From Mobula hypostoma (Eukaryota), in assembly GCF_963921235.1 (NCBI RefSeq), contig NC_086097.1, positions 107,696,001 to 107,760,000 of the forward strand: 64,000 nt of DNA, read 5' to 3'. The notes beneath the pieces are model-generated. The model ran no database searches. It was not told where the DNA came from and worked only from the letters and a program-made list of their open reading frames with translations. Of this stretch, positions 5,241 through 64,000 are shown piece after piece. Every line of letters starts with the position of its first letter. Positions within the stretch are counted from its first letter, which is position 1. The translations under genes and the position numbers were made by a program.

Positions 5241-6262
5241 TGTCATAAGGGCGGTGGCTGGGAACGGACCCAAGTGCAAGACACAGACACTGAAGTACTA
5301 GGGACAGGACTAGGATACAGGGTGAGAGCAAGGACATGGACATGAAAACCGGGTACCCGGAACAGGACTGGACAAGAGAGCTAGGAGCCCAGGCTCTTGC
5401 CTCTGGCTCGGACCCCAGAACTAGGCAAGGACGAGGCTTGGCTGGCAGGCAGGATGAGGCTGGAGTCTTCAGGCTTGAGGCTAGAGACTAGAGGCGTGGC
5501 TTGGCAGGAGGCAGGAGGCTGGAGACTTCAGGCTTGAGGCTAGAGACTAGAGGCGAGGCTTGGCAGGAGGCAGGAGGCTGGAGACTTCAGGCTTGAGGCT
5601 AGAGACTGGAGGCGAGGCTTGGCAGGAGGCTGGAGGCTAGAGACTTGAGGGGAGGCTTGGCAGGAGGCTGGAGGCTAGAGACTTAAGGCGAAGCTTGGCA
5701 GGAGGCTGGAGGCCACTCCTGGGCAGGGCACGGTTCTCCTGGGCAGGGCACGGTTCCCCTGGGCAGGGCGCGGTTCTCCTGGGCAGGGCACGGTACTCCT
5801 GGGCAGGGCGCGGTTCCCGTGGGCAGGGTGCGGTTCTTCTGGGCAGGGCGCAGTACTCCACCCAACGGAGGCAAGGGACAGGAAGGGACAGAACCAACCG
5901 CAGATAACAGCAAGATGGCCTGGCTTACCCGACGGAGGCAAGGGACAGGAAGGGACAGAACCAACTGTAGGTAACGGCAATACGGCCTGACTTACCCAAC
6001 GGAAGCTAGGGACAGGAAGGGATAGAACTAACTGCAGGGTAATGGCAAGACGGCCTGACTTACCCGGCGGAGGCAAGGGCCAGGAGGGGAGCTAGGTACG
6101 GGGTGGCTCCAGGACAAGACAGCAAGACAAAGCAAGGCTTCAGGCAATGCAAGGCAAGACAGAACTTCAGGTGAGGCGAGAGTTACCGACAAGACAGGGC
6201 AGGGCTTTAGGCCAGGAAACAGAAGGCAGGGGAAGGGATACAAGGAGTAAGGACAAGAACAA
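5241..6262 (-). mobile_element. Truncated LTR of the same family as the 10099-12043 element, with expanded tandem arrays
   Basis: Begins TGTCATA, the reverse complement of the LTR 3' end at 12043, and carries the same ~65-bp, 20-bp and CCAGCCT-rich repeats. Confidence 0.88.
5718..5857 (+). repeat. 20-bp minisatellite CCTGGGCAGGGCRCGGTWCY, 7 copies
   Basis: Copies counted directly. Confidence 0.95.
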
Positions 6263-9368: not shown

Positions 9369-9959
9369 CTGAAGTATACTCTTGGCATTATTAAGATTTA
9401 AATGAGGGAGCTAATACCTAATTTAGGTCTCCTAATTGTGATTCGCTGCCAGAGAGTGGAAGAGCTGCTGCATACTTGAATATCTTTTTTGATAGCCAAT
9501 AATATTTAAGATTATTGTCAATCCAAAAGTGCTGCTGTGGACCAGCAGTGGGAGTGCTACTTCTTTGATTCCACAGCATTCCCATCAGTACTTCCTAGTT
9601 CCTTCCTAGGATTTGCTATTGGACTGATCTTCATCTGCTGAGGGAGTGTGCAGTCTTTGGAAACGTGGCAGACCTTGACAGCTCCCCGAGATGAAGGTGG
9701 AGTCCAAACTTCTGCACTTCTTCAACGAATGGGGCTGGATGAGCCTTGTTGATGTCATCCACTCATCTTCATTTGTAGAAAGAGATATCTGATGTTTGAC
9801 CTGCAAAGTTCCTTTAGCAGTTTGTGTGCATTTGAAGAATAGTTTATTTTCAGTTGAAGATATCTCAAAATAGGCAAGAACAATACAGGAAACTTTGCAA
9901 TACATGTTTAATTTTCAATTATCTACAAAAATGAGCACTAACATTATTAGGTTCATTGC

Positions 9960-12380
9960 TATAGTGACCAGAATCCACTATATCTATATATCTGTATATT
10001 TGTAAATTAAACAAAATAAACAAAAGTGCATAAAGAGAGCAAAAATAGTGAGTTAGTGTACATCGGTTCATTGTCCATTCAGAAATCTGATGGCACAATG
10101 TCATGGTCCAGTCTGTGAAGTCTGCATTCTGGTTCATGGTCCGGTCCGTTGACCCTTGCTCCAGGTTTTCCTGTCTATCCTGCTTCTGTTCCTGTTGAGC
10201 ACTAATTGAGGCAGCTGATGCTCGTTGGAGCTGGCTGCATAAATACCTCCAGAGACCAGCGTGTGGCTGCTGGATTGTTCTTGTCCTTACTCTTTGTATC
10301 CCTTCCCCTGCCTTCTGTTTCCTCGCCTGAAGCCCTGCCTTGTCTTGCCGGTAACTCTCGCCTCGCCTCGCCTGTAGTCTTGGAGCCATCCTGTACCTAG
10401 CTCCCTTCCTGTCCTTGCCTCCGCGGGGTATGTCAGGTCATCTTGCCATTACCTGCGGTTGGTTCTGTCCCTTCCTGTCCCTTGCCTCCATCGGGTAAGC
10501 CAGGCCATCTTGCCGTTACCCTATGGTTGGTTCTGTCCCTTCCTGCCCCTTGCCTCTGTCGGGTAAGCCAGGCTGTATTGCCGTTACCCTGCAGTTGGTT
10601 CTGTCCCTTCCTGTCCCTTGCCTCCGTCAGGTGAAAGTCCGCGCCCTGCGTAGGAGGAGCTTCAAGACCCCAGCCCCCAGCCTCACCTCAGGTCTCAGCC
10701 TTGCCTCAAGACTCCAGCCTCGCCCTGCCTGCCAGCCAAGTCACGTCCTTGCCTAGTTCTGGGGTCCGAGCCAGAGGCAAGACCCAGGTATTGGGTCCTT
10801 GTCCAGTCTCTGGCTCGGAGTCCAAGCCCAGGCTCCTAGCTCTCTTGTCCAGTCCTGTTCCGGGTTCCCGGTTTTCGTGTCCATGTCCTAGTCCTCACCC
10901 TGTATCCTAGTTCTGTCCCTAGTACTTAATTGTCTGTGTCTTGCACTTGGGATCCGTCCCCAGCACCCATCCTATGAAAGAATGATACAGCCAACCATGG
11001 ACCCAGCGACACAGACACTGTCATTTTCCTCTTGCCACCTGGGGTTCCCGTCTGTTAAATACCCTCCCACCCGCTCAGGTCGTCCATAGTCTGGATAGCC
11101 TGTTTGTTCGCCAGGAGGCTCCCGGGGGGGTGGGGGGGTACTGACATGGTCCGGTCCGTGAAGTCCACATTCTAGTTCACAGTACGGTCCGTCGACCTTT
11201 GCTCCAGGTTTTCCTGTCTACCCTGTTTTCTTTTCCTGTTGAGCACTAATTAAGGCAGCTGATTCTTGTTGGGGCTGGCTGCATAAATACCTCCAGAGAC
11301 CAGGGCGTGGCTGCTGGATTGCTCTTGTCCTTACTCCTTGTATCCTATCCTCTGCCTTCTGTTTCCTTGCCTGAAACCCTGCCTTGTCTTGCCGGTAACT
11401 CTCGCCTCGCCTCGCCTGTAGTCTTGGAACCACCCTGTACCTAGCTCCCTTCCTGTCCCTTGCCTCCGCCGGGTAACAGGCTGTCTTGCCGTTACCCTGC
11501 ATTTGGTTCTGTCCCTTCCTGTCCCTTGCCTCCGTCGGGTAAGCCAGGCCGTATTGCTGTTACCCTGCGGTTGGTTCTGTCCCTTGCCTCCGTCTGGTGG
11601 AGATCCATGCCTTGCCCAGGAGTATCACGCCCTGCCCAGGAAGAGCTTCAGGACCAGCCTCCAGCCTTGCCTCAAGTCTCCAGCCTCCAGCCTCACCTCA
11701 GGTCTCCAGCCTCCAGCCTCACCTCAGGTCTCCAGTCTCCAGCCTCCAGCCTCCAGCCTTGCCTCAGGTCTCAGACTTGCCTCAAAACTCCAGCCTCGTC
11801 CTGCCTGCCAGCCAAGTCACGTCCTTGCCTAGTTCTGGGGTCCGAGCCAGAGGCAAGACCCAGGTACTGGATCCTTGTCCAGTCTCTGGCTTGGAGTCCA
11901 AGCCCGGGCTCCTAGCTCTCTTGTCCAGTCCTGTTCCGGGTTCCCGGTTTTCGGGTCCATGTCCTTGCTCTCACCCTGTATCCTAGTCCGGTCCCTGTCT
12001 GTGTCTTACACTTGGGTCCATCCCCAGTGCCCATCCTATGACACACAAGGGAAGAAGCTGTTCCTAAAATGTTCAGTGCGTGTCTTCAGGCTCCCATACC
12101 TCCTCCTTTATGGTAGTAATGAGAAGAGGGCATGTCCTGGGTGATGGGAATCCTTAGTGATCCTTAATATTGGATGCTGCTTTTTTGAGGCATCATCTTT
12201 TGAAGATGTCCTCGATGCTGGAGAGGCTGTTGCCCTTGATGGAGTGCAAGGTGGGTCAATGTATGTACCTTTTTGGAAGATTGTGTTTGTGCATGAGGGG
12301 GTCTCTTGAACTTCTGCAGATGCACTATATAAAGTATCCTGACAGGAAGCATGACAACATGTTGTGACAACTGCTCTGCT
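9960..12380 (-). mobile_element. Rex1/Babar-type LINE 3' part, split by the LTR element at 10099-12043
   Basis: ITKDSHHPGHALFSLLP motif; the LINE sequence resumes across the CACAA duplication. Confidence 0.75.
10099..12043 (+). mobile_element. Non-autonomous two-LTR retrotransposon (LTR1 10099-10979, internal 10980-11141, LTR2 11142-12043)
   Basis: Two homologous ~0.9 kb repeats with TGTCAT..ATGACA-type termini, a perfect 5-bp TSD CACAA (10094-10098 / 12044-12048), a G-rich PPT before LTR2 and an MDPA-type start at 10997. Confidence 0.93.
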
Positions 12381-15890: not shown

Positions 15891-16511
15891 TAATAAATGG
15901 TAATTTTGAAGTTGCAAGGTAAAATTTTAATAATGTGTGCAGAAAACAATATATAACTTAATTTTAATAGAAAGAAACCAATTAAACAGGAATATCATAA
16001 TAGAGAGACCAGAAAAGAGACCATTCAACTATTAGCAGATATTCTCATGGCTGAAGAAAAACAGTTTAAGAAGTGATTAAAAATAGTGAGAAGAACCTTA
16101 CGGGAACTTTCCATCAATTTTATTTCCATTATGATCAGAGCCTTTTGACCTGAAATATTAACTCTATTTTTCTTTCCACAGATGCTGTCTGACCTGTTGA
16201 ATATTCACAACATTTTATTTTCATTTTAAGTTTGCAGCTTTTGGAGATTTTTCATTTTTAAACTCAAGTGTAGGTTTGATTGAGCAGTGCAGCACTCTAC
16301 CATTGCTGATGACTGGATAAAGTTTAGATCATGCTAACTATTCCTGCTACTATGCAATGTGAACTTATGCTTGGAAAACATTGGAACCAGTTTGTTCTAT
16401 TGCCTGCATTCACGGAAATACAATTCCTTTGATAGCAATAGCGTTACAGATAACCAGCCATTGCTCTGAGCAGGAAATTCTTACTTGACCTGAAAATTGC
16501 GTGGCACTTTA

Positions 16512-17228
16512 TACTGCATCCAGTGCTCCTGGTGCGGCCTTCTATATATCGGCAAGACATGATGCAGGCTGGGAGATCGTTTCGCAGAACACCTACGCTC
16601 TGTCTGCCAGAGAAAGCAAGATCTCCCAGTAGCCACACATTTTAATTCCACGTCCCATTCCCATTCTGATATGTCTATCCATGGCCTCCTCTACTGTCAA
16701 GATGAAGCCACACTCAGGTTGGAGGAGCAACACCTTATATGCTGTCTGGGTAACCTCCAACCTGATGGCATGAATATTGACTTCTCTAACTTCCGTTAAT
16801 GCCCGTCCTTCCCTTCACACCCCATCCCTTATTTATTTATTTTATATATTTTTTATTTTTCCCCCTTTTTTTCTCTCTCTTTTTTCTCCCTCTGTCCCTC
16901 TCACTATAACTCCTTGCCTGCTCTCCACCTTCCAGGCTCCCCTCCCCCCTTCTCTTTCTCCCCAGGCTTCCCGTCCCATGATCCTTTCCCTTCTCCAGCT
17001 CTTAGATCCACCTCTCCCCTCCTGTCTTCTCCTGTCATTTCGGATCTCCCCTCCCCCTCCCACTTTCAAATCTCTTACTATCTCTTCTTTCAGTTAATCC
17101 TGACGAAGGGTCTCGGCCCAAAACGTCGACTGTACCTCTTCCTATAGATGCTGCCTGACCTGCTGTGTTCACCAGCAGTTTTTGTGTGTGTTGCTTGAAT
17201 TTCCAGCATCTGCAGATTTCCTTGTGTC
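16512..17228 (+). mobile_element. Penelope-like element 3' part (GIY-YIG endonuclease plus terminal region with hammerhead motif)
   Basis: YCIQCSWCGLLYIGKT..RLGDRFAEHL..VATHFN..EEQHLI..QPDGMN; 10-bp TSD TGGCACTTTA (16502-16511 / 17229-17238). Confidence 0.92.
17091..17133 (+). ncRNA. Minimal type I hammerhead ribozyme motif (GAAA box mutated to AAAA)
   Basis: CTGACGA, GGG/CCC stem II, AAAA, then CGTC, with partial stem I pairing to GACTG; matches the minimal hammerheads known from Penelope elements. Confidence 0.65.
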
Positions 17229-19198
17229 TGGCACTTTAAATGTTTTTTTGTAATATGTATAGTATGAATATTTAGAATATTAATTGAAAAAAATCACATA
17301 CTTTTGATTTTATTTACTAATTGAAGAATTAATGAAATATAGTAGAACAAAGGAAATCTTACACATTTCAAAAACTTTTTCCCATCTGTCTTTATTATAA
17401 ATCCATTGTCCAGATTAATTTTGCCTCCAGATGAAAGATGTGTCTTAATCCTCATTAGATCATCCAAATGTTCCAATTCTAGTGTGTTCCTGGATTTACA
17501 TTTGATTGAGTTCATGAAACTGAATCCAAGTTCACAATAAGCACTAGAAATGTTCCAGCGATATTAACAAGAATTGACAGTTCCTCAAGTTCTTCATTTC
17601 TAAGCACATAGTTCAACGTATCAGTAAACATTTTATTTGAATCAGTCTTAACTTTTGCAGAAATGACAATTTTGAAATCATAGTATTGTTGCGATAATTT
17701 TGAAGCAATGCTTTCATCGTAGTTTATAATAGTAGATGAGTTTTTTTTGACAGTCGTACAAGATTCTCTTTTCCAAATTCAAAATTGGTTGCGTTTGCAA
17801 AAGCAACAGGGTCAAAAGCTTGCCATTCTCTTAACTCATCATCAGAGAAGCTATTATCCAAGTGATTACACTCCTGTTGAATGAATTGAATAATAGGCAC
17901 AGTATCAACTTCGGAACTTATAGATACAAGCAGATCTTTTACTTTGTCACTCTAATAAATGGTATCACCAAAATACTGTGGGCATAACTTGTTAATTTTT
18001 GCTTTTGCATACTGTAGAACTTCAATTGTATTCAAACAACTTTTCTGAAGGAATTTACAAAGAGATGCCAGATCATAAAACATCGTTAAGGACAGTTAAT
18101 GCTGCTCGATGTTGTGGATTGGTGAAAATCTTCAGGCAGAAGTTGCTGATTGGAGCGTTACATTCACGAACTTGCCCTTTGCATTACTGGACTAAAACTT
18201 CATAATTCCTCAGTAAAGCAGTAATGGGAAAATGTCTTGACAGCCATCTTACTTCATTTAGTGGTCTAAATGACAGAATATCACATTCTATGACATTAGC
18301 TAAATGAAACTTTCCTGGTTTAGCCAATGACCTGTTCATAGCTGTGTTTCTACATCCTGCATAACTTATATTTTTCCATGCGTCGTCTAGTCCTAGGTCT
18401 TCTCTGTGCAACACAATGTTACTCCAACAGATGTTTTATTTCTCGGCAAAGAATTGCCGTCACACCATTATTCTTTCCAAGTATAACATTTGCCCTGTCT
18501 GACGTAAACATCACCATCTTTTAAACATCAAGATTGTTGTTGATACATATTTTTTTGCTTCAACTATAGTGATACTGCCACATGCAGTTAGTTCCAAAAT
18601 ACCCACAAAGACAGTCTTATAGGAAGTTTCATTTTCCAGTCAATGCGTAAAATACAAAATTAATATTTTCTGTAAAAAAAATACCTGTACTTTCATGAGG
18701 AATTAGCGCATGGAAAGCAGGTTTCCACAATTCTTCCATTATCTCTTTCTGAAGCACACAGCTGATGCATTCAACAAATTTGAATGCAATGTTCTTGCTG
18801 CACCAACTCTCTGGTATATTTACATATTTGTCCAGGTGTGCATGAATTTCTTGCACAGAATGCATAGAAGCAGTAATTTTAACTCCTAACATAACGTTAT
18901 CAATTACCACTTTGACCATTATCAGAGTTAGACTTCTTTCAGCATTTTGTTTCACTCTTGCTTCACGTTCTTTTGGAGTTTAAGTTAACAAGCGCAAAAT
19001 TCCACAGTTCTTCTGGTTGTGTAATTTGGTAACTGAATATATATGAATTCCTCTGGTTAAGATGTCGTTTTAAGAATTCTGACTTCTATTCTTCCCATTT
19101 TTTCCACTACTGAACTCACCCCCAAATTTTGCTTCCTCAAAAATGGTGCATACAACATCGCCAGCATCCAGATATATAAAAATATTGCCAATTTTTAT

Positions 19199-19333
19199 CC
19201 TGAAGAAGGGTCTCAGCCCAAAACATTGACTGTTTACTCTTTTCCATAGATGCTGCCTGGCTTACCATGTTTCTCCAGCATTTTGTGTGCATTACTTCGA
19301 TTTCTTGCATCTGCAGATTTTCCTTGTCTGTGA
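19199..19333 (+). mobile_element. 135-bp Penelope-derived short element (hammerhead motif plus tail)
   Basis: Homologous to 17099-17228; perfect 12-bp TSD GCCAATTTTTAT (19187-19198 / 19334-19345). Confidence 0.88.
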
Positions 19334-19479
19334 GCCAATTTTTATTCTTTGTTTTTGATACAAAGTCGGTAGCTCAGTATCTATGAGTTGCAAAGCCATT
19401 CTACTTTAAATTATGTACAATCTTTGTTCTCCAAAGCATTTAACTCTTTTTCTGCTTTACTTTTTGAAATCCTTGGGAT

Positions 19480-21262: not shown

Positions 21263-22169
21263 ATCCTTGGGATACTAAAAATAATTAATATAATTTGAGA
21301 ACATGGAAAATAATAATAACTATTATTTGAAAAATAAGTCCAAAATGTATAATTTTAATAAAATATCCACAGTCATGCAAACAATTTTATTGAAATGGAT
21401 TTTTACATTAATTTAAAAAATCTTATTAGAGTTTTTTTTTATAGATTACTTACCAAAATGTCAGAATGTAGAATTTTTCACATCAAACAAACACAAATGA
21501 CAACTCACAACACAAGTAAATGATGTCAGGCATACAAAGCGACTGACAGGCGCAATGGAAAGAGTAAAATGTTTGACTAAACGGCAGTGGCATTCAGCAG
21601 GCTGGCAGTTTCTTAACAATGAGCTGCCGACTTACCTTCTCTGTTTATTGTTAGAATTTTTAGCAGCATTGTAACTTGAAACACTGACAATGTGAATATG
21701 TTAAAGCTCTAAAATGTTTCTAAGGGTACTATGTTTATTATTTAGAAAATTTATGGATTATATGCATTAACATAAAATAAATTATGGGGTATTTCACAAT
21801 TATATTAATATATATTTCAAAATTATATTAACATTATATAAAAGAAAATTCCAGCTGTGTGGTAACAAAGGCAATATTCACAGGAGCATTGCAGTTACTA
21901 TGTCACTGTGCACCCACGCAGCTTAGAGGGAACAGTGGTTAGAAAGGAAACCATCATTCCATGGTCCAAATGTGAACTGCTACATATGCTGGAAATAAAA
22001 CAGAATGCTGGAGATACCCAGAAGAACCAGCAGATCAATGGAGAAAAGGAACTGAGTTAATGCAACAGGTTAATGACTTGGTTTTTCTCTATAAAAGTTC
22101 TGTTATGTACCAAGTATTTCTAGCAGTGTCTCTTTTATTCTATAATTTATGTGATTATTGGCTTCTTAA

Positions 22170-22845
22170 GGTAGCTATAGCTGGGGTGGTAATGGGGCTA
22201 AGCTCCCACTACCTATTAAATGCTCGCAATGGCGTGTGCCTCAAATAGCCCTGACAACCAAGTCCAGCTCCTGGCCCTCACACTTGGTTTAGCTACTGAC
22301 AGGAGAAAGGGAAAAGGCAGGTCCTACTGAAGGGTTTCTGCCCAAAACATCGACAGTACTCTTTTCCATAGCTGCTGCCTAGCTTGCGAGTTCCTCCAGC
22401 ATTTTGTGTGTGTTGCTCCAATTTTCAGCATCTGCAGGTTCTCTCTTGATCAAAGACAGGTTACTGGCACCGTAACATCAGTCATTTTGGGTAGGTGGGG
22501 CTTTGTAGCTGTGGTTGGCGGCTCATCCAGGAGAAAGAAAATTCTGATCTCCAACCTCCGCTGCCTTGTGGTTATACCCACTCATGCAGATGGTTTTGGG
22601 AGTAAACCCAGAGGTAAAAATCCAGAGCAGGAATCCCTAAGGCTGTTCCACGTTGAGTTCAATTCTGACTGGCAACTCCTGCGACCCTGCCGGTGCTGAA
22701 CTGTATTGGTCTCTGCCATTCCTTTAGGTTCATTAGATGCGTGCTGAGGGGGAGCTTGCTCTCTGTGTTGTACTGCCCTGACTTGCGAATCTAGACAGTT
22801 AAGATATAACATCCACGGTCAACCCTGACCAACGGAGGCCTCAAA
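22170..22845 (+). mobile_element. RTE-related non-autonomous element, interrupted at 22323-22451
   Basis: Motifs shared with 3760-4050 and no coding remnant; the family assignment is inference. Confidence 0.45.
22323..22451 (+). mobile_element. 129-bp Penelope-derived short element (degenerate hammerhead plus tail)
   Basis: Homologous to 19199-19333; TSD AAAGGCAGGT / AAAGACAGGT (22313-22322 / 22452-22461). Confidence 0.82.
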
Positions 22846-31660: not shown

Positions 31661-33059
31661 TTTACAGACCGGAGTGCTGGGTCCTAGGTCTAAGACTTTG
31701 GGCATTAGTTTGGATTTATGGGATTGAAAGCAGAACTATAGTCAATAACTAGGAGTTTGAAGCTATGCAGATGTTCCAGAGATGAGTGCAGAGCTGCAGA
31801 GGTGGTGTCCACTGTGGACCCACTTCAGTAGTGGATGTACTGAGTGAGTCGAGGTTAACTGGGAGTCTGCAGTTGGTGTGTGCCATGACCATCCTCTTGA
31901 TGTCAGGGAGGCAGGCACCAGAGATACATCGTAGTCAATGAAGCACATTACCTTAGTTCTCTATGTCACTGGGATGAAAGTAGCGACACTTTGACCAGCT
32001 ATATCTTCCCCACCCCACCTCTTTCTGCTTTCCTCAGGGGCATGTCCGTCTGTGACTACGTGGTTCACTCATCCCTCCTGACCCACCACCTTCCTTCCCC
32101 CTCCCCAGGCATTTCACCTGCAACCTGAGGCAGTGTAATACCAGACCCTACAGCTCTCTCCTCACCAACTTCTAGGTGAGGCAGGAATTTACACGCAACT
32201 CTTCCAACCTTGTCTACGTATTTGTTCTTTCTATAATGACTCTTTGATTCAAAGTTGGGTCACCGAGAAACCCCCATCCCCAGGGGCAATTTACAGTGGC
32301 TAACTACAGCCAGCACACAGAACATGCAACATTACAGCACAGTACAAGCCCTGTGGTCTACAATGTTGTGTTGACCTTTTAACCTATTCTATGATCAAAT
32401 CAAGCCTTACCTCCTTCATAAACCCACATTTTTCTATCACCCTTGTGTCTATCTAATAGTTTCTTAAATGTCCCTAATGTATCTGCCTATAACACCGGGA
32501 CTTTCTATGCACACACCATGCTCTATGTAAAAACCTACCTCTGACATCCCCCCCAATACTTTTGTCCCATCACCTTAGAATTATGCTCCCTTGTATTAGC
32601 CATCTTTGCGATGTGAGAGCAAACTCTAGTACCCATGGTAGTTAGGGATGACACTCATCTGATTCTCTACAGATAGAACACGTAGATTTCACACAGACAG
32701 CGATCTGTATTGGAGATCAGTATTGAATCCAAGGCATTGGAGCTGCAAGGCACTTTCTTAACTAGCTGCATGTCCATGCCACCCTTGATAAAAGGATTAG
32801 AAGGGAGAATATAATTCAATAAGGTTTGTGGTGCCTTGACTCACTGCCCAGCAGGATGCCGGAAGCAAAACCCCTCATCACATTTAATAAGTGCTTGCAG
32901 ACCCATGACTTTTGGTGGCCAGGTGGAAGTACATTGCTCAGATTTATTTCAGCCACCATAGTGCACCACTTCCTAGGTCAAAATGTACCCGATCTTGAGG
33001 AAAGCTTCTCTACTCAATGTGCAGATGGGTTTGGAAATGCATTGCTTGATAAAGTAGGC

Positions 33060-33445
33060 AAAGCAACACACACAAAATGCTGAAGGAAAGCAGCAGGTCA
33101 GGCAGTGTCTATGGAAAAGAGTAAACAGACAATGTTTCAAGACTGAGAGGAAGGGGGAAGATGTCTGCATAAAAAGGTCGGGGGAGAGAATAGAGGTTAG
33201 CTGGAAGGTGATGGGTGAAGCCAAGTGGGTGGGAAAGGTCAAGGGCTGGAGAAGAAAGAATCTGATAGGAGAGGAGAGTGGACAATATGAGACAGGGAAG
33301 GAGGAGAAGACCCAGGGGAGGTAATAGGCAAGTGAGGAGAAGTGAAAGGTCATAGTGGGGAATAGACAAAGAGAGAGAGGGAAAGGGCGGAAACTGATAT
33401 TCATGCCATCAGGTTGGTGGGTATCCACACCGAATATAAGGTGTT
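33060..33445 (-). mobile_element. Penelope-like 3' fragment
   Basis: HQPDGMNI plus the same terminal tail as 16512-17228; the hammerhead region is partly deleted. Confidence 0.8.
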
Positions 33446-41781: not shown

Positions 41782-42981
41782 TTAACATCTAGACAAACAA
41801 TCAGCGATCACATTGTCTTCACCCTTAATATGAGTGATCAAAATATTGTATTCCTGTAACATTAAACTCCAATTTAATAATCTTCTATTTTTGTTTTTCA
41901 TCTTGCTTAAAAACACTAATGGATTGTGATCGGTATAAACTGTGAGTGGTTTATGCGTAGAACCAATATACACTTCAAAATGTTGCAAAGCTAAAACAAG
42001 AGATAACAATTCTTTTTCCATTGTTAAATAATTTCTTTGACAGGCATTACATTTCTTAGAAAAATAAGCGACCGGACGATCAACTTCATCACCATCATCT
42101 CTTTGAAGCAACACTGCTCCTGCAGCTTCATCACTAGCATCTACAGCTAACAAAAATAGTTTTTCAAAGTCAGGAGATTTAAGTACAGGTTGACTACATA
42201 ATATAGCTTTCAATTTATCAAATGCCTCCTGACAAGACTCTGTCCAAACAAACTTCTAATTTTTCTTCAAGAGATTAGTTAATGGAAGAGCAATATCCTA
42301 CCATACCCAAGAATCTTCTGAGAGTTTTCTACCAGTGGGAGTGGGTACTTCTAAAATTGCCTGAACTTTTGCTTGAACAGGTGCTAAATTTCCCTGACCC
42401 ACAACATAACCAAGGTAAGTCGCTGTGACATGCCCAAATTCACTTTTAGCTAAGTTAATAGTTAAGTTAGCTTTTGAAAGTCTCTCAAATAATTTCTCCA
42501 CCGCCGCATTATGTGCTTTCCACGTATGATTTCCTGTAACCCGATCATCAATATAGGCATCTGTATCTTTTAATCCCTGAATCACACTATTAATCATCCT
42601 CAGAAAAGTACTTGGTGCATTCTTCATCCCAAATGGAAGAACATTATATTCATATAACCCAGATGGGGTTACAAATGCTGAAATCTCTCTACCCGTATCT
42701 GTCAATGGAACACACCAATAACCTTTTAACAAATCAATTTTTGTAAGGAATTTGGCCTGTCCAACTTTATCCACACAATCATCTACTCTAGGGATTGGAT
42801 ATGCATCAGTTTTTGTCACAGCATTCACCTTTCTGTAATCTGTACAAAACCTAATACTATTGTCTGGTTTAGGCACCATAACACACGGTGAACTCCAATT
42901 CAAATTAGAATGTCTAATAATATCATTCTCTAACATGTACTTAATTTCCTGTTCAGCAAGTTCACATTTTTCCCTGTTCAT
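41782..42981 (-). pseudogene. pol: RT and RNase H (frameshifted)
   Basis: RFCTDYRKVN, IDLLKGYW, PFGMKNAP, YIDD; VDASD, EKELL and TDHNPL. Confidence 0.95.
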
Positions 42982-43103
42982 TCGATATGGGTGTTGTTTT
43001 ATGGGTTTTGCATCTCCAACATCTACATCATGTGTAGCTACAGTGGTTCTTCTAGGGACGTCTGGAAATAAATCTCTATATTTAAAAACTGTTTAAAACT
43101 GTT

Positions 43104-44778
43104 TCATCTGCTCTGTCTGTCTGGCTGTAAATGAGCTAATTTTTCATCAATATTTTCCAGAATTTTTGAATTTGGTAACCTGGCTGAAATAATGTTGGGT
43201 TTAAAATGAGTTTTGGATGAATCCTCCAGTAAGTTTTCATCAAGATCAGACTCATTATTGATCACAACAGTCATAGTAGCAACTTCTCTCTCATAATACG
43301 GTTTTATCATATGTATATATGACACAGCTGTGTTGTCTTCCTCTGATCAGGGGTTTTTACTACATAATCCACCTCATTTATCTTAGATTTAATCTCATAA
43401 GGACCATGGAATTTGGCTTGTAATGGGTTTGTTTGCACTGGGAAGAGAACCAACACCTTATCTCCAGGCTTAAATGACCTCATCCTAGCTTCCTTATCAT
43501 GCCACGTCTTCATCTTCACTTGAGCTAACTTAAATTTTCCTTGGCCAAACTACAAGCTTTGTACAAACTGTCTTTAAATTTCAAAACATAATCTAGCAAA
43601 TTAGTGTGTACTTCTTTATTAATCCACTGTTCCTTCAGCAAGGCCAAAGGTCCTTGAACTCTATGTCCAAACACAAGTTCAAAAGGACTAAAACCTAATG
43701 AATCCTGTACTGCTTCCTGTACTGCAAAAAGTAGTACATGTATACCTTCATCCCAGTCCTTTTCATTTTCTACACAATATGTCCTAATCATAGTTTTAGC
43801 GTAGAATGAAATCTCTTGTGATTCTGGATGATAGGCTGAGGAAATAATCTGTTTTGCTCCCAGTTTATGAACTATTTGCTGAAACAACCCAGACATAAAA
43901 TTACTACCTTCATCTGATTGTATTTCCTTAGGCAACCCAAAATAAGTGAAGAATTTTATAAGAGCTTTTGTCACAGTTTTGGCTGTTATATTCCTAAGAG
44001 GTACTGCCTCTGGAAACCTAGACGCTGTGCACATAATAGTTAATAAATATTGATGTCCAGTTTTAGTTTTTGGCAATGGACCTACAATGATTTTGGAGAA
44101 CGGCTCACCGAATACTGGAATTGGTTGCATTGGGGCCACTAGAGTAACCTGATTAGGTTTACCAACAATTTGACACGAATGACACGTTCTACAAAATGTC
44201 ACCACATCTTGTCTTAAACTAGGCCAATAAAAATGTTTAGAAACTTTGTTCATAGTTTTCTTTACCCCTAAATGACCACCCAAAGTAACACTATGAGCCA
44301 TAGTCAAAATCTCATTTTGGTAAATTTTAGGAACAACAACCTGATGATTAACTTCCCATTCCTCACTAGCAGGAATTGTAGGCGATCTCCACTTTCTCAT
44401 TAATACCCCCTTTTCAAAATAATATCCAACTGGTACTTTTTCAATTTCACTGTCTGGAAGAGCTTGTTCTTTTAATTTAACTATCTCAGGATCTCTACCC
44501 TGCTCTGCTATCATCTCCTTCTGAGATAAAGACAAATCTTGCTGATCAGACGTACCACCAGAATCCTGATCAAATAAGGTAGGTAAGAAAGTTTCTGATA
44601 AATCCTCAAAATTCGAATCTTGATTTGAACTGTCATGGGTAACAACCTCATCCTTTACATCAGTCTTTTCAGCCATAGCTCTTGTTAGATCACAGGAAGA
44701 ATCTGTGTTAGTATCTCTCTGTGGTTCCTCAGAATTTGAATTGATTGTCAAATGCACTTGCAGGAAAAACTTGTCCAC
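43104..44778 (-). pseudogene. pol: Integrase (HHCC zinc finger, damaged core, GPY/F module) upstream of RT
   Basis: AHSVTLGGHLG..CRTCHSC, IQSDEGSNF, YHPESQ and FHGPYEI; stops and small deletions. Confidence 0.93.
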
Positions 44779-46286
44779 CTGCTAGATCATTCCCTAACAA
44801 AAGAGAAACATCATTCACAGGTAAATTGGATTGTAATCCTACTTTAACAACCCCTGTAACTAAACCTAACCTTAAATTTACTCTGTGTAAATGTACTGGC
44901 ATAAGGGCAGTCCCTACTCCGCTTATATGATTTACCTCACCAATGTCAGACTCATCACTAGACCTTAGCACACTGTCTAATATTAGTGATTGTGAAGCTC
45001 CAGTATCTCTAAGTATTCTCATTGGTACTGCATTGGATCCTTCATCCAAGGATACAAATCCTTCTGTTATAAAAGCTTCATATCCCTTCTTAAATTGGTC
45101 AGACTCTGACACATCTTCATTAATATTTTCTAAACCCTGTGGTTTTACAGGTTTTCCAATATGCTGCACACAAGCATCTGGGGCCACTTCTTTCTCTTTC
45201 CGTTTCAATCGGAAGCAATTAGCCACTACATGTCCAGGTTTCTTACAATAATTACAAATAATACCAAAATGTCTTTCCTTCACAGGTCTCCCTTCATCCT
45301 TACTTTTCTCACTAACTTCAGATTTAATGTCTGATTTACCTTGACTCTCTGTGCTAGTTTTCCTTTTAAAAATTTTACCTGGAGAAAATTTATTCTTGTG
45401 AATTAAAACATACTCATCAGCCAATTTAGCAATCTCCTGCAAAGTAGCAGTGTCCCGTTCATTTAAGTATGTTCTCACTTCAACAGGAATGCTTCTTTTA
45501 AATTCCTCCTGCAAAATCAGCTCTTTTAATTTATTATACTCCTCATTCACATTTTTAGGAAACCCATCTCTCAAAACACACAGATTTCTCATAGGCAAAC
45601 TCCACGTAAGTTTTTTCCACCGATTTCTTCAAACTTCTAAATCTTTCTTTATACGCTTCCGGAACCATCTCATATGCCTTTAATATTTGCTGTTTAACAA
45701 TATCATAATCCAGTGCTTGCTCAGCGTTTAAAACTGTATAAACTTGTTGTGCCTTGCCTTTAATTACACTTTGTAACATCACCGGCCATTGGTCTTTCGG
45801 CCACTTGAAACTCAGAGCAACTGTTTCGAAATGTTGGAAATATGTATCCACATCAGTTTCATTAAATGGAGGAGCCAAAACAACCTCACGACTAGCAATA
45901 AATTGTTTCGTAGAACCAGAAGACTGATTCCCAGACCTTACTTTCTCCATCTCTAGCTCAAACTTCCTCTGGTTTTCAGCTTCTCTTTCTTTCATTTCGA
46001 CTTTAAATCTTTCAAACTTTAACTGTTCAAGATGCAACTGCATTTCCAGATTACTCATTGGAAACTTCTCTAACACCTCCTCATCAAAATATTCCAAATT
46101 AATATAATGTTCAGCAATTTCCCTTTGTATGAAATCCTTGGTGGAATTTCTCGTAATTCCTTTAATAACCAACTTCCTAGCAATCTCCAATACCACAGGT
46201 TTTCTCGCATTCTCTAAAAATCCCGAGTCAGGTGTCTTCAAGAACCCATCAATATCCATTGTTGCCGAATACAGCACACACACCAA
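44729..46286 (-). pseudogene. gag: Gag (SCAN-like capsid region, CCHC knuckle) plus protease, frameshifted near 45560-45600
   Basis: YFQHFE..W, LKELILQEEF..LADEY, CNYCKKPGHVVANC, LRDTGASQS and LLGNDL. Confidence 0.93.
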
Positions 46287-51530: not shown

Positions 51531-52160
51531 TCCACCCATTACCAGCTCCCAATTCCCTCCCCTCTGTGGCACAACCTACCTGTCATCTTTCACCCCTCCT
51601 CAATTCACCATCACCTCAGGTTCAAACAAAAGAAAATCTGCCGATGCTGGAAATCCTCTTCGATCCGTACGCCCTGACTCCGTCTCGTAAATGCCTTGAC
51701 CTCGCTCACCTTTGCCTTTGCTCGACTTTGCCTTGCACCCATACACTTCGACCCTCGACTCAGCCTCACCCTCTCTCACCTCTTCCTTGTTTGCGGTGAT
51801 CATTTACCATAATTTTTTACAGGAAAAGTGTTATTAATAAAGAACTTAGTTGTATTCTGAATCCATTTTCGACAGTGACTTAGTGTTTTTAGAACAATGA
51901 CAGTATTCATAATTTTCAGTAATGGAGCAGTTCAGAGAAGGACACCTAATTCATTCAATGATCTAATAAAAACATCAGTGTTTTTGGATAATGGTTGATT
52001 CTTTATAAGAAAGGGTGTTTGCTGTTCACAGAGCTGCTGAATTGGCTTAATCATGCTTAAGGTAAGCTGGGTAACCAACAGGAGAATTGCACAGCTACAT
52101 ACAGGAAAATTAATAAGTCTGCAACTCCCATACAGGAAGCTTTCTCGGAGCTGCACTTAC

Positions 52161-58670: not shown

Positions 58671-59554
58671 AGCTGATTACTTCCTACAATGAGAAACGTA
58701 ACATCATGAATGACAGTGATACTTCCCTCCCAGATGAGCTCAACATTTTTTATGCTTGCTTTGAAACTATAAATTACAAAGTGTATCCATTCAGATATTT
58801 GTGCCAGTGTTGATTGTCAGCAAGGAAGAGTGGAGGAGATGCTTGATAGAGTGCTACTTTATAATGTTATCAAGATTGAAATCCACAGGATAAAATCGGC
58901 TGTAGCAGGATAGATAGAAAATTGGCTGAATAGTAACAAATAAAAAGTAGTACTGAAAGTTTGCATTTCAATCTAGAGAGAAATGTACAACAGAATACCC
59001 GTAGGTTCTATGTGAGTAATGTTGCGTTTCTTAATGTATGCTAATGATCTGTACTTGGTACACTGAGCCAATGTTTCCAAATTTTTAGATGACAGAAAAC
59101 ATATGAAAGCAATTATGGGGAGCACAGTTACAGATTTCAAGAGGAGACCAACAAGCTGGTAGAAATGGTGAATATGGAAAAAGCAAAGTCTTTCATTTTG
59201 CGGGAAAGGATGAGGAGAGACCATGTAAGTTACAGGTCACAATTTAAAAAGGAGTACAAGAACAGAGAGATCAGGGAGCAATATGCTTGAATTTTAGAGT
59301 GACAAGCCAAGTTGAGAAAATGGTTTAAAAAAGCATACCAGATCTTGCAGCTTACAGAGAGAGCTGGTAGAGACCATTGTAAATACGTACCAAAACCAGA
59401 GACCCCCACGGTCGAGTTGCAGAGAATCGTTCTTACCAAACTCACATATCTCTACCCAAAAATTTGAGACATGGAATAAAATTCATTCTTAAGGAATTTA
59501 TTTGTGTGGAGAAATAAATAAATGAACAAAACTAAAAAGAAACAACAAATTTTA

Positions 59555-60235
59555 CCCCCTCCCTCACCTCCAATCAGTCCCTCTACTAGGTGAGGCGACA
59601 CTTCACCTGCGAATCTGCTGGGGTCTTCAATTGTGTCTGGTGCTCCTGATGCAGCCTCCTCTACACTGGTGAGATCCGTAGGAAGTTGGGAGATTGCTTC
59701 GTCAAGCACCCCCACTCCATCTGATAATAGCAGAACTTCCCGATGTCTGAACATTTTGATTCTGATTCCCATTCCATGACCTCCTCTTGTGCCAAGTGAG
59801 GCCACCCTCACTGTGGAAGAACAGCACCTTATATCCCATCTGGGTAGCCTCCAACCTGAAGGCATGAATATCATCTTCTTCTTCTGGTAAAAAAAATTCT
59901 CCACCCTCTTCTTTATTCCTCACCCTGACCTTTTACCTCTTCTCGCCTGCCTATCACTTACCCCTGGTGCCCCTATTCCTTCTCTTTCTCCTATGGTCCA
60001 CTCTCCTCTCCTATCAGATTCCTTCTTCTCCTTCTCTTGACTTTTCCCATCCACCTGGCTTCAACACCTATCACCTTCCAGCTAGCCTCCTTCCCCTCCC
60101 CCAACCTTTTCATTCTGGTATCTTCTCCCTTCCTTCTCAGTCTCTGAGGAAGGGTCTCAGCCCCAAACATCGACTGTTTATTCATTTCTATTGATGCTAC
60201 CTGACTTGCTGACTTCCAGCATTTTGTGTGTGTTG
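59555..60235 (+). mobile_element. Penelope-like element 3' part (GIY-YIG remnant plus hammerhead-bearing end)
   Basis: RHFTCESAG..CV.C, LYTGE and EEQHLISHLGSLQPEGMN; 12-bp TSD CAACAAATTTTA (59543-59554 / 60236-60247). Confidence 0.9.
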
Positions 60236-61209
60236 CAACAAATTTTATCTAATTTTATTTCTTTTAGCTCTCATCGATTGACACATGCACAGATAATTGT
60301 GTGTGTTTTAGTGTGCAAAATGCACTTTTCTGTCTAGCAGTTTTAACATTGTTATTGTTATTTGCTACATTATATTGGTATTGGCTTATTATTTTCACGT
60401 ATCAAGAGAATGCAAAGCTTCTCTTAACTACTGTTCATGTAGATCAAAATCATTCCATATTGCATTGAGGTAGAACAAGATAAAGTCATAACAATAAAGA
60501 TCAGAGTAGGAAAGGAAGTTGAAATGGTGTATAAGCACTTGCAAGAGTTATGTTCTTATTCACCATTTTAATAATGAAGAATAAAGTGTAAAAACTACAG
60601 AGAAAGAGCAGTGCAGGTGAACAATGAAGTGCAAGATCATAACAAGGTAGATTGTCAGAATTAAAATCAGGTTTAATGTCACCGGTATACGTCATGAAAT
60701 TTGTTGACTTTGCAGGCTTTGCAGCTGCAGTACAATGAAATGAATATATAATATACTAAATAGTTAAATTAAATAAGTAGTGCAAAGATAGAAATAAAAA
60801 AGTAGTGAGGCAGAGTTCATGGGTTCAATATCCATTCATAAATTGGATGGCAGAGGGGAAGAAGCCGTTCCCGAATCATTGAGTGTGTGCCTTCAGGCTC
60901 CTGTACCTCTTTTCTGATTGTATCAAGGTGTGTCCCAGCTGATGGGGGTCCTTGTGCGGTCAAGAGTCCATCTTATCTTACTTAGTCATCTATCCCACTG
61001 TTATCAAACGTCTGATAACAGTGGGATAGAAATTGTCCTCGAGTCTGGTGGCATGTCCTACTCTCTTATCTGTGCTTACAAGTATATGTCTTCAGTCAAA
61101 TGGAAGGCTGGAAGGTGCTAAGCAGAGACACAAAATGGTGCTGCCTCTCCATCTTGCTATTCCCTCATATGGTTCCATCTCCCCTTTTTTTCTTCATTCA
61201 TTATCTGTC

Positions 61210-62622: not shown

Positions 62623-62721
62623 CCTGAATGAAGGGGCTCAGCCTGAAACATTGACCATCTATTAATTTCCTTGGATACTGCCTGATCTGCTGAGTTCCTC
62701 CAGCAATTTCTGGGTGTTGCT
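62623..62721 (+). mobile_element. Penelope-derived short element (hammerhead motif plus tail)
   Basis: CCTGAATGAAGGGGCTCAGCCTGAAACATTGAC followed by GATACTGCCTGATCTGCTGAG; retains the GAAA box. Confidence 0.75.
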
Positions 62722-63083: not shown

Positions 63084-64000
63084 CTGTTTATTATTGTCAA
63101 TCTGTTCAGTCCTCATTATTCTGCAGTGTGTTCACTGGTTAAGAATAAACCAGATGTCTCTGTAGAACTTAAAAATCATCGGGTATGCTGTTTTTAACAA
63201 TCAGGATATAAACTTATAGGTCCTTAATATAAATTTGTATTTAAGCCTGCAGCACAAATACTTCCACAGATACAAATTCTGTCTTCCTCATTGAAAGAAA
63301 TACTTAGATCATAAAGTAAGGCCATCAGTAGAATCAGATGCTTTAGATGTATGTACATATTGCAGAAATAATTAAAAATTGAAAAATACAATTAAAATAA
63401 AATCACTTTCCTGACACACCCTCTCAGCTGTCTATGCAATCTTTCTGAGACATGCTCTTCTGCCATTTACTATTTACATAGATGCAAAGCAAACAGAACA
63501 GAAAATGACATAATGTATTTCATTAAAGTGGAACATATTTTAGTGAAGAAAGATCTAGGATAATGGCATTTCTCAGCTTAAGTAATTTCCACATTAAGTG
63601 TTGGGAAGCATGCTCAATTTTAAAAAGGAAAACAGCTTCATAGAGATAACCAATCCTAATTCTGACTGTGAAATGAACCCATCATCCATAGAATTACCAG
63701 CAAATGGTAACCCATATAAAAACTGAATATGAACTTACTCTAGTGCTAGTTCAAGAATTATGTTTGAACACACATAAAATGCTGGCACAGCTCAGCAGGT
63801 CAGGCAGCATCTATGGAGGGCAATAAACATTCAGCGCTGTGTCCTCTAGTCTTAGACTCCTTCACCATAGGAAACATCGTCTTTGCATCCACTCTATTGA
63901 GGCTTTCAACATTCCATAAGTTTCAGTGAGGAAGTGCGTGAGATGTAGGTGTTCTGGTCTCCAACTGGAGACATGGTTTCCAATCCCACTCCTGGCATCT

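Follow-up and report, generated by a model that had tools for sequence, protein, structure and literature searches.

Short hammerhead-bearing inserts of a Penelope-like element in Mobula hypostoma share a 5' boundary at the front edge of the hammerhead

Introduction

Solo minimal hammerheads of metazoan Penelope-like elements (PLEs) occur mostly as single, dispersed motifs, described as 'probably related to truncated PLEs' (Cervera and De la Pena 2014, PMC4209133), and solo pLTRs are also on record (PMC3846280). The hammerheads of the ray element analyzed here resemble those PLE motifs in being minimal, of type I and located in the pLTR, with a bulged base before stem II and palindromic helix III letters. 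In contrast, the descriptor used in that study needs helix I, which is missing in the short ray units. The available text of that paper mentions no target-site duplications (TSDs), 5' boundary or cartilaginous fish.

In the Poseidon element of Anolis carolinensis (Frangieh 2024, PMC11167929), reverse transcription in vitro is primed internally, within an ORF that opens at stem II and 111-118 nt from its start. According to the sections available, uncleaved RNA is used, AT-rich targets are preferred, no RNA reads end at the cut site, and cleavage is not needed for insertion. The ray element is similar in having two 3' ends 30-40 nt apart, AT-rich targets and a start of reverse transcription ~110-130 nt downstream of the hammerhead. 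Unlike Poseidon, it belongs to a different clade, its close homologs carrying a CX2-5CxxC linker. Genomic 5' ends are not discussed in the accessible text of the Poseidon paper.

Non-LTR retrozymes (PMC7229834; Li, Clavereau, Pollet, bioRxiv 2026) are likewise short, non-coding, pLTR-derived hammerhead units that occur as dispersed monomers, and pLTR-derived retrozyme monomers have been reported in one chondrichthyan (bioRxiv 10.64898/2026.07.22.740005, as far as accessible). However, retrozymes are tandem repeats with complete hammerheads, whereas the ray units are solo and their minimal hammerhead is incomplete. Retrozymes are also defined by tandems, which are rare in the ray element (9 and 3 contigs among the joints listed).

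The Penelope pLTR of Drosophila virilis contains a promoter and an intron (Schostak 2008, PMC2377424, in the part available). The 3' end of this intron abuts helix I, at its 5' end (PMC4209133); at the comparable place, the ray element has a pyrimidine tract followed by AG. In contrast to D. virilis, the ray pLTR shows no splice joint among the 15 of 339 joints listed, and no strong donor.

Dispersed minimal hammerheads of truncated PLEs, solo pLTRs, the optional tail and retrozyme monomers are therefore already known. What appears to be new is that the 5' boundary is fixed, at the hammerhead's leading edge; we found no published account of this (Repbase, Dfam and subscription papers lay outside the scope of the search).

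Results

Short inserts are the decayed 3' end of a GIY-YIG Penelope-like element

The window is a 64,000-nt stretch of M. hypostoma contig NC_086097.1. It contains three short inserts on the forward strand, units A (19199-19333), B (22323-22451) and C (62623-62721), which are the decayed last 100-135 bp of a PLE with a GIY-YIG endonuclease (EN) and consist of a minimal type I hammerhead and the PLE tail. Unit A retains one helix I base, the CUGA box and stem II, followed by a G12-to-A change, a decayed cleavage triplet, the helix I 3' strand and a long tail. Unit B also has a long tail, with a degenerate CUGA box and G12 changed to A; unit C has a short tail, keeps G12 and carries a 1-nt insertion in the CUGA box. 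All three begin with CCT in register with position 17099 of a long copy (22323 within ~6 nt), as the original prediction had stated. Pairwise identity among the named copies, short units and GIY-YIG copies together, is 69-83%, and stem II, the (G/A/C)AAAC box and the tail are common to all.

The 12-bp TSD predicted for unit A was confirmed: the AT-rich left copy (19187-19198) and the right copy (19334-19345) are identical, and the best alignment reaches 15 bp with one mismatch. A TSD score of at least 12, the chance level relevant to unit A, occurred at 0.3% of 3000 random positions. The 10-bp TSD with one mismatch predicted for unit B is likewise present, the left (22313-22322) and right (22452-22461) copies agreeing at 9 of 10 positions; its score was equalled at 1.9% of 3000 random positions. 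The final two bases of the left copy also match the element upstream of CC, and because the five bases following CC agree with the downstream flank as well, the 5' end of unit B is uncertain by ~6 nt. Microhomology of 1-2 nt is present at both TSD junctions (units A and B). The TSDs of units A and B are real, but for unit C no TSD was found, either adjacent or distant within 3 kb. Note that TSDs do not distinguish the short units, because the long copy at 59557 is also flanked by one (59543-59556 and 60236-60249; 14 bp with one mismatch).

The source element and its other copies in the window

A profile built from the five named copies gave 14 matches in the window, of which 11 with E ≤ 0.0035 were kept and 3 with E > 0.6 were dropped. 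The 11 comprise three long copies (at 17099, 60144 and, on the reverse strand, 33139), units A, B and C starting at the CUGA box, two old copies of another subfamily with roughly a CUGA-box start, one copy starting near the cut site and two tail fragments. Six of the copies found in the window had not been predicted: 33061-33445(-), 63767-63838(-), 16132-16249, 21976-22062(-), 9783-9832 and 51623-51656(-). Together with one RT fragment, PLE copies make up 4.4% of the window, which is repeat-rich, with LINE-like, LTR-like and simple-repeat ORFs.

The first long copy (forward strand) is 5'-truncated. It starts with an endonuclease remnant (16494-16799) containing one in-frame stop, continues through a pyrimidine-rich pLTR part of ~300 bases (16800-17097), whose terminal AG abuts the short-unit start, and after the hammerhead ends with the PLE 3' end (17133-17228), including an optional ~32-nt tail extension. 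C+T content is 82% over 16780-17098 and 75-82% over the pLTR part overall; the 40 nt 5' of the boundary are 75-80% C+T in all three long copies. The second long copy, also 5'-truncated (59557-60237, forward), contains EN, a pLTR of a second subfamily, the hammerhead and a short tail. In the third, a second-subfamily copy on the reverse strand (33061-33445), the CUGA box and stem II are deleted, cleanly and apparently between short similar motifs. An old decayed PLE fragment (31919-32232, forward), covering the RT thumb and linker region, lies ~830 bp from this copy.

The remaining copies are shorter. The copy at 63767-63838 (reverse) has no TSD and starts within a few bases of the predicted cut; it adjoins a LINE-like fragment and could derive from cleaved RNA. 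Two old, diverged short copies belong to one older subfamily: 16132-16249 (forward) starts approximately at the CUGA box and 21976-22062 (reverse) roughly in the hammerhead, the boundary being uncertain in both. A tail-only fragment (9783-9832, forward) has a possible 11-bp TSD with one mismatch, and a fragment containing only the tail extension (51623-51656, reverse) was identified as a profile match.

The original prediction that the short inserts have the same tail as the GIY-YIG copies holds in that the tail is shared, but the tail comes in two lengths. The copies at 17099, 19199 and 22323 end at the position of 17228, and those at 60144 and 62623 end ~32 nt earlier. Short copies exist with both tail lengths, and an older subfamily has short copies too; the 3' ends of the short units fall ~97 and ~129 nt past the CUGA box.

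The endonuclease remnant matched Pfam GIY-YIG weakly (E 0.0064, under the curated cut-off). Its closest proteins are from the rays Hypanus sabinus and M. hypostoma (7 matches, 77-92% identity). Longer ray homologs have RT motifs upstream of EN, and distant full-length homologs consist of RVT_1 and GIY-YIG. In five ray homologs (P0002-P0005, P0008) the order is RT motifs, CX2-5CxxC linker, endonuclease; the 16494 and 59557 copies begin downstream of the linker. This linker marks the Neptune and Nematis clades, while Penelope and Poseidon lack it (PMC8557442, in the part available). Judged from its homologs, the source element is an EN+ PLE with a predicted linker of the Neptune/Nematis type, Neptune being likelier than Nematis in a vertebrate host. 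The PLE traits named in the same part of that source, a pLTR hammerhead, an optional 30-40-bp tail, 5' truncation and tandem or inverted joins, were all found here.

Other features of the repeats were recorded. Two ray protein models (P0004 and P0007), named as a kinase-domain protein and an ATP-synthase subunit isoform, contain PLE endonuclease sequence, either as an annotation artefact or by exonisation. Fragmented gag, protease, integrase and RT frames at 41782-46286 (reverse) resemble an LTR retroelement. Related GC-rich tandem-repeat blocks (7-, 20- and 67/68-bp units) lie in opposite orientations at 5432-6090 (forward) and 10402-11772, and may be the ends of one repeat family.

The short units lack one strand of helix I

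The minimal type I hammerhead of the first long copy spans 17091-17132 (forward strand), its positions being numbered by the established hammerhead consensus. Helix I is formed by a 5' strand (17091-17095) and a 3' strand (17128-17132), and palindromic letters replace helix III. The core consists of the CUGA box (17100-17106), stem II and the G12 position (17120, A in this copy), with the predicted cut at 17127/17128. Helix I and stem II form as expected in the fold, which is weak (-11 kcal/mol, z -0.79). Stem II pairs at 73%, versus 21-55% when slid, with covariation not above that of shuffles. For the short units, folding showed no advantage over shuffles (z -0.13 and +1.46).

The helix I 5' strand (17091-17095) is missing in all three short units, with one base kept, so that a short unit cannot form the ribozyme from its own sequence. 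The earlier term 'ribozyme-headed' therefore holds only with this qualification. The copies do start at the CTGA-N-GA box, but among the three the box is intact only in 19199; 22323 has two changes and 62623 the 1-nt insertion. A change of GAAA to AAAA had been proposed for most copies; G12 is A in three of the five named copies, but C in 60144 and G in 62623. A whole hammerhead core was found in none of the window copies, in agreement with their predicted inactivity. Judged by their letters, solo short units are predicted to be inactive on insertion ("dead on arrival"), and the window copies show no sign of function. When two 47-nt hammerhead copies were cofolded, an intermolecular duplex formed and no active dimer was recognisable. 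Rfam at E ≤ 1 returned no hammerhead and one unrelated match.

Copies begin preferentially at the front edge of the CUGA box

In the window, the 5' ends of copies fall preferentially at 17094-17099. This boundary coincides with the front edge of the CUGA box and precedes the cut site by 30 nt. In units A and B, whose 5' ends are defined by TSDs, these ends are no more than a few bases away from 17098-17099. Of the other window copies, one begins near the cut site and two begin further downstream. For three of eight ends to fall within any 12-nt interval, p is ~0.015 under uniform truncation, in line with the predicted non-random 5' start of a PLE-derived hammerhead-plus-tail module.

To follow the boundary beyond the window, contigs of 4 of 23 listed runs (two DNA-type and two presumed RNA, from two organisms) were aligned to 16430-17270 at 80% likeness. 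The runs gave 137429, 119334, 8366 and 7597 aligned contigs, one of these numbers being a lower bound ('at least'); one DNA run may share the window's own source. Note that all four runs, including the two presumed RNA runs, are assembled contigs, which carry nothing on expression and cannot show RNA ends. The results comprise the best 24 of 2824 loose-end rows and the best 15 of 339 joints.

Loose ends before 17098 were found in at least 876, 648, 87 and 85 contigs (the first two being the DNA runs). The loose parts at this position are long (median 72-154) and their agreement is low (0.37-0.43). In a mixture simulation, agreement was 0.55-0.66 if all contigs were long second-subfamily copies and 0.37-0.39 at ~25-40% long copies, suggesting that ~60-75% of the 17098 ends in the DNA runs enter unrelated flank (a rough figure based on two templates). 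The 17098 peak is inflated, as the reference differs from 97% of the depth at 17097 and long second-subfamily copies diverge there. A larger loose-end row at 17180 appears to be an artefact of alignment, its loose parts being short and similar to the element. The rows at 16653 and 16678 resemble the element as well.

Joints reuse the same position. Among the 15 of 339 listed, 9 and 3 contigs of the two DNA runs carry tandem joints from the tail to 17098, 3 and 4 carry inverted joints at 17098, and no joint is a splice joint into 17098. No row at the ribozyme cut (17128) appears among the 24 of 2824 loose-end rows listed. We conclude that the boundary is real, that the copies are abundant and that the shared 5' start holds outside the window.

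The contigs also bear on the state of the core across the family. In each of the four runs G12 is the majority letter, with 81, 76, 92 and 89% of contig depth. Its CpG partner at 17119 is T in 39, 29, 58 and 49%. CpG decay at 17119-17120 is thus lopsided, C-to-T change that leaves a tolerated wobble being commoner than loss of G12, more strongly so in the two presumed RNA runs. This excess of tolerated over lethal CpG change hints that the source elements may have kept their core, a weak hint because depth sums are not copy numbers.

Searches with tail and hammerhead patterns found no locus in either viral contigs or prokaryote genomes. Two metagenome matches were rejected as chance, only 22 bases being shared with the window.

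Discussion

The short inserts as run-off products

The view that the short inserts are target-primed retrocopies is based on their 3' sequence, which is that of the GIY-YIG copies, on TSDs of 10-14 bp, on the two 3' ends and on the preferred boundary. To account for this boundary, we favor a reading with about even chances of being correct, in which cDNA primed in the tail extends to the 5' terminus of an RNA, located at the hammerhead's front edge, and runs off there. The PLE protein would nick the target and prime reverse transcription internally at one of the two tail sites. If each end of the PLE transcript carried a hammerhead-plus-tail module, long copies, variably truncated, would result from priming at the downstream one, and a fixed run-off product of 100-130 nt from priming at the upstream one, in the 5' tail copy. 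The RNA 5' end would then lie at the front edge of the hammerhead, either as a transcription start or as an end processed at the AG. A jump from the RNA 5' end onto the tail of another RNA would produce head-to-tail units.

The cut is 30 nt downstream of the boundary, so the 5' end is not set by ribozyme cleavage. Cleavage-made ends were accordingly rejected as the main class: they fit only one window copy, and none is seen at 17128 in the 24 of 2824 rows listed (weak evidence).

PLE transcription is described as starting within the upstream pLTR (PMC2377424; PMC6765202, in the parts available). The start in D. virilis counts against the run-off reading, as it is ~120 nt upstream of the intron end (46 + 75) and not at the hammerhead (PMC2377424).

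In the ray element itself, no strong splice donor was found in the pLTRs of the three long copies, which contain just two weak GT sites. Immediately before the boundary the letters look like both an initiator and a splice acceptor. As the same letters form the helix I strand, however, they do not point independently to a promoter or a splice site. No N-terminus matching the tail was found among 28 homologs (matches near hammerhead copies had E 0.9 or worse), nor an elasmobranch N-terminus showing the tail as the opening of the ORF. Also counting against the run-off reading are the window copies that begin near the cut site (one) or further downstream (two), and the factors that inflate the 17098 peak.

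Alternative explanations

The run-off reading competes most directly with a truncation hotspot, in which reverse transcription from the 3' tail of a long RNA drops off on entering the ~300-nt pyrimidine tract upstream of the hammerhead. Hybrids of pyrimidine RNA with purine DNA are weak, and proteins bind to such tracts; either the weakness of the hybrid or a protein on the tract and AG would block the enzyme. The boundary lies at the 3' edge of the tract, where a block would act, and the sequence upstream is C+T-rich in all three long copies (75-80% in the 40 nt, 75-82% in the pLTR part). Contig depth drops stepwise from 17097 to 17010, a pattern confounded by subfamily, and ordinary 5' joining would account for the 1-2 nt of microhomology seen at both TSD junctions. 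In contrast, the reuse of one position by tandem and inverted joints speaks against a hotspot. Moreover, the EN region retains about half of the depth matched at the hammerhead, indicating that many copies extend through the tract (depth being a weak guide). We regard a hotspot, in its two variants together, as possible but improbable.

Still less probable, and in our judgement unlikely, is a separate retrozyme- or SINE-like lineage: one or more non-autonomous masters with a 5' end at the CUGA box that would depend on the PLE for mobilisation in trans, including the version in which tandem dimers restore helix I from the end of the previous unit and cut out monomers. TSD-flanked units of near-fixed length, the tandem joints and the described pLTR-derived retrozyme monomers (bioRxiv 10.64898/2026.07.22.740005) are compatible with such masters. 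However, the short copies have no diagnostic changes in common, both tail lengths occur among them, and identities within the group (A-B 83%, A-C 69%, B-C 74%) are not set apart from those of A and B to long copies (77-81%). The original prediction had proposed examining whether the short copies form their own clade. In an analysis of 6 rows and 100 columns, 3% of 200 bootstrap trees placed A, B and C together, although the AU test did not reject such a clade (p 0.20). Matches to pol III A and B boxes, scanned against a presumed consensus at one mismatch, were 0 in all four units, and the 29 repeat rows listed contain no tandem array in the window and none with complete hammerheads. A monomer cut by the ribozyme would start at 17128. 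A single master is unlikely.

The original prediction had also suggested a strong RT stop at the ribozyme fold, which the position of the boundary next to the fold might seem to favor. As reverse transcriptase copies RNA from 3' to 5', a stall should end downstream of the fold and not at 17098; by geometry the starts would be left near 17133 or 17120. The boundary lies on the far side of the fold for such an enzyme, the fold is weak (-11 kcal/mol, z -0.79), and no 'before' row at 17120 or 17133 is among the 24 of 2824 loose-end rows listed, making this explanation very improbable. Equally remote is the absence of any real boundary, with ordinary length-biased 5' truncation and alignment clipping creating its appearance: the window sample is small, the reference mismatch at 17097 pools nearby ends and the two-template simulation is crude, but under uniform truncation a 12-nt interval holding three of the eight ends is expected with p ~0.015, TSD-defined ends are independent of clipping, and joints reuse 17098.

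Implications

Under the run-off reading, the short unit may be the PLE counterpart of retroviral strong-stop DNA: a product of fixed length, primed in the 5' tail, that runs off the RNA 5' end and is inserted in very large numbers. We put this forward tentatively, as somewhat short of probable. If true, the 5' end of the short unit would map the start of the PLE RNA in the genome, and the jump would explain pLTRs, partial tandems and retrozyme monomers without ribozyme cleavage.

A start 30 nt upstream of the cut implies that uncleaved RNA is the main template, in agreement with the in vitro result for the anole element. What makes the short units interesting is the clue that their boundary gives to how PLEs replicate, rather than any ribozyme activity of the window copies. 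An abundant insert with both ends fixed records in the genome where reverse transcription begins and where it ends, and the short units offer a route from PLEs to retrozyme monomers. The boundary thereby bears on two questions, how the pLTR of PLEs is constructed and what role the hammerhead plays in it.
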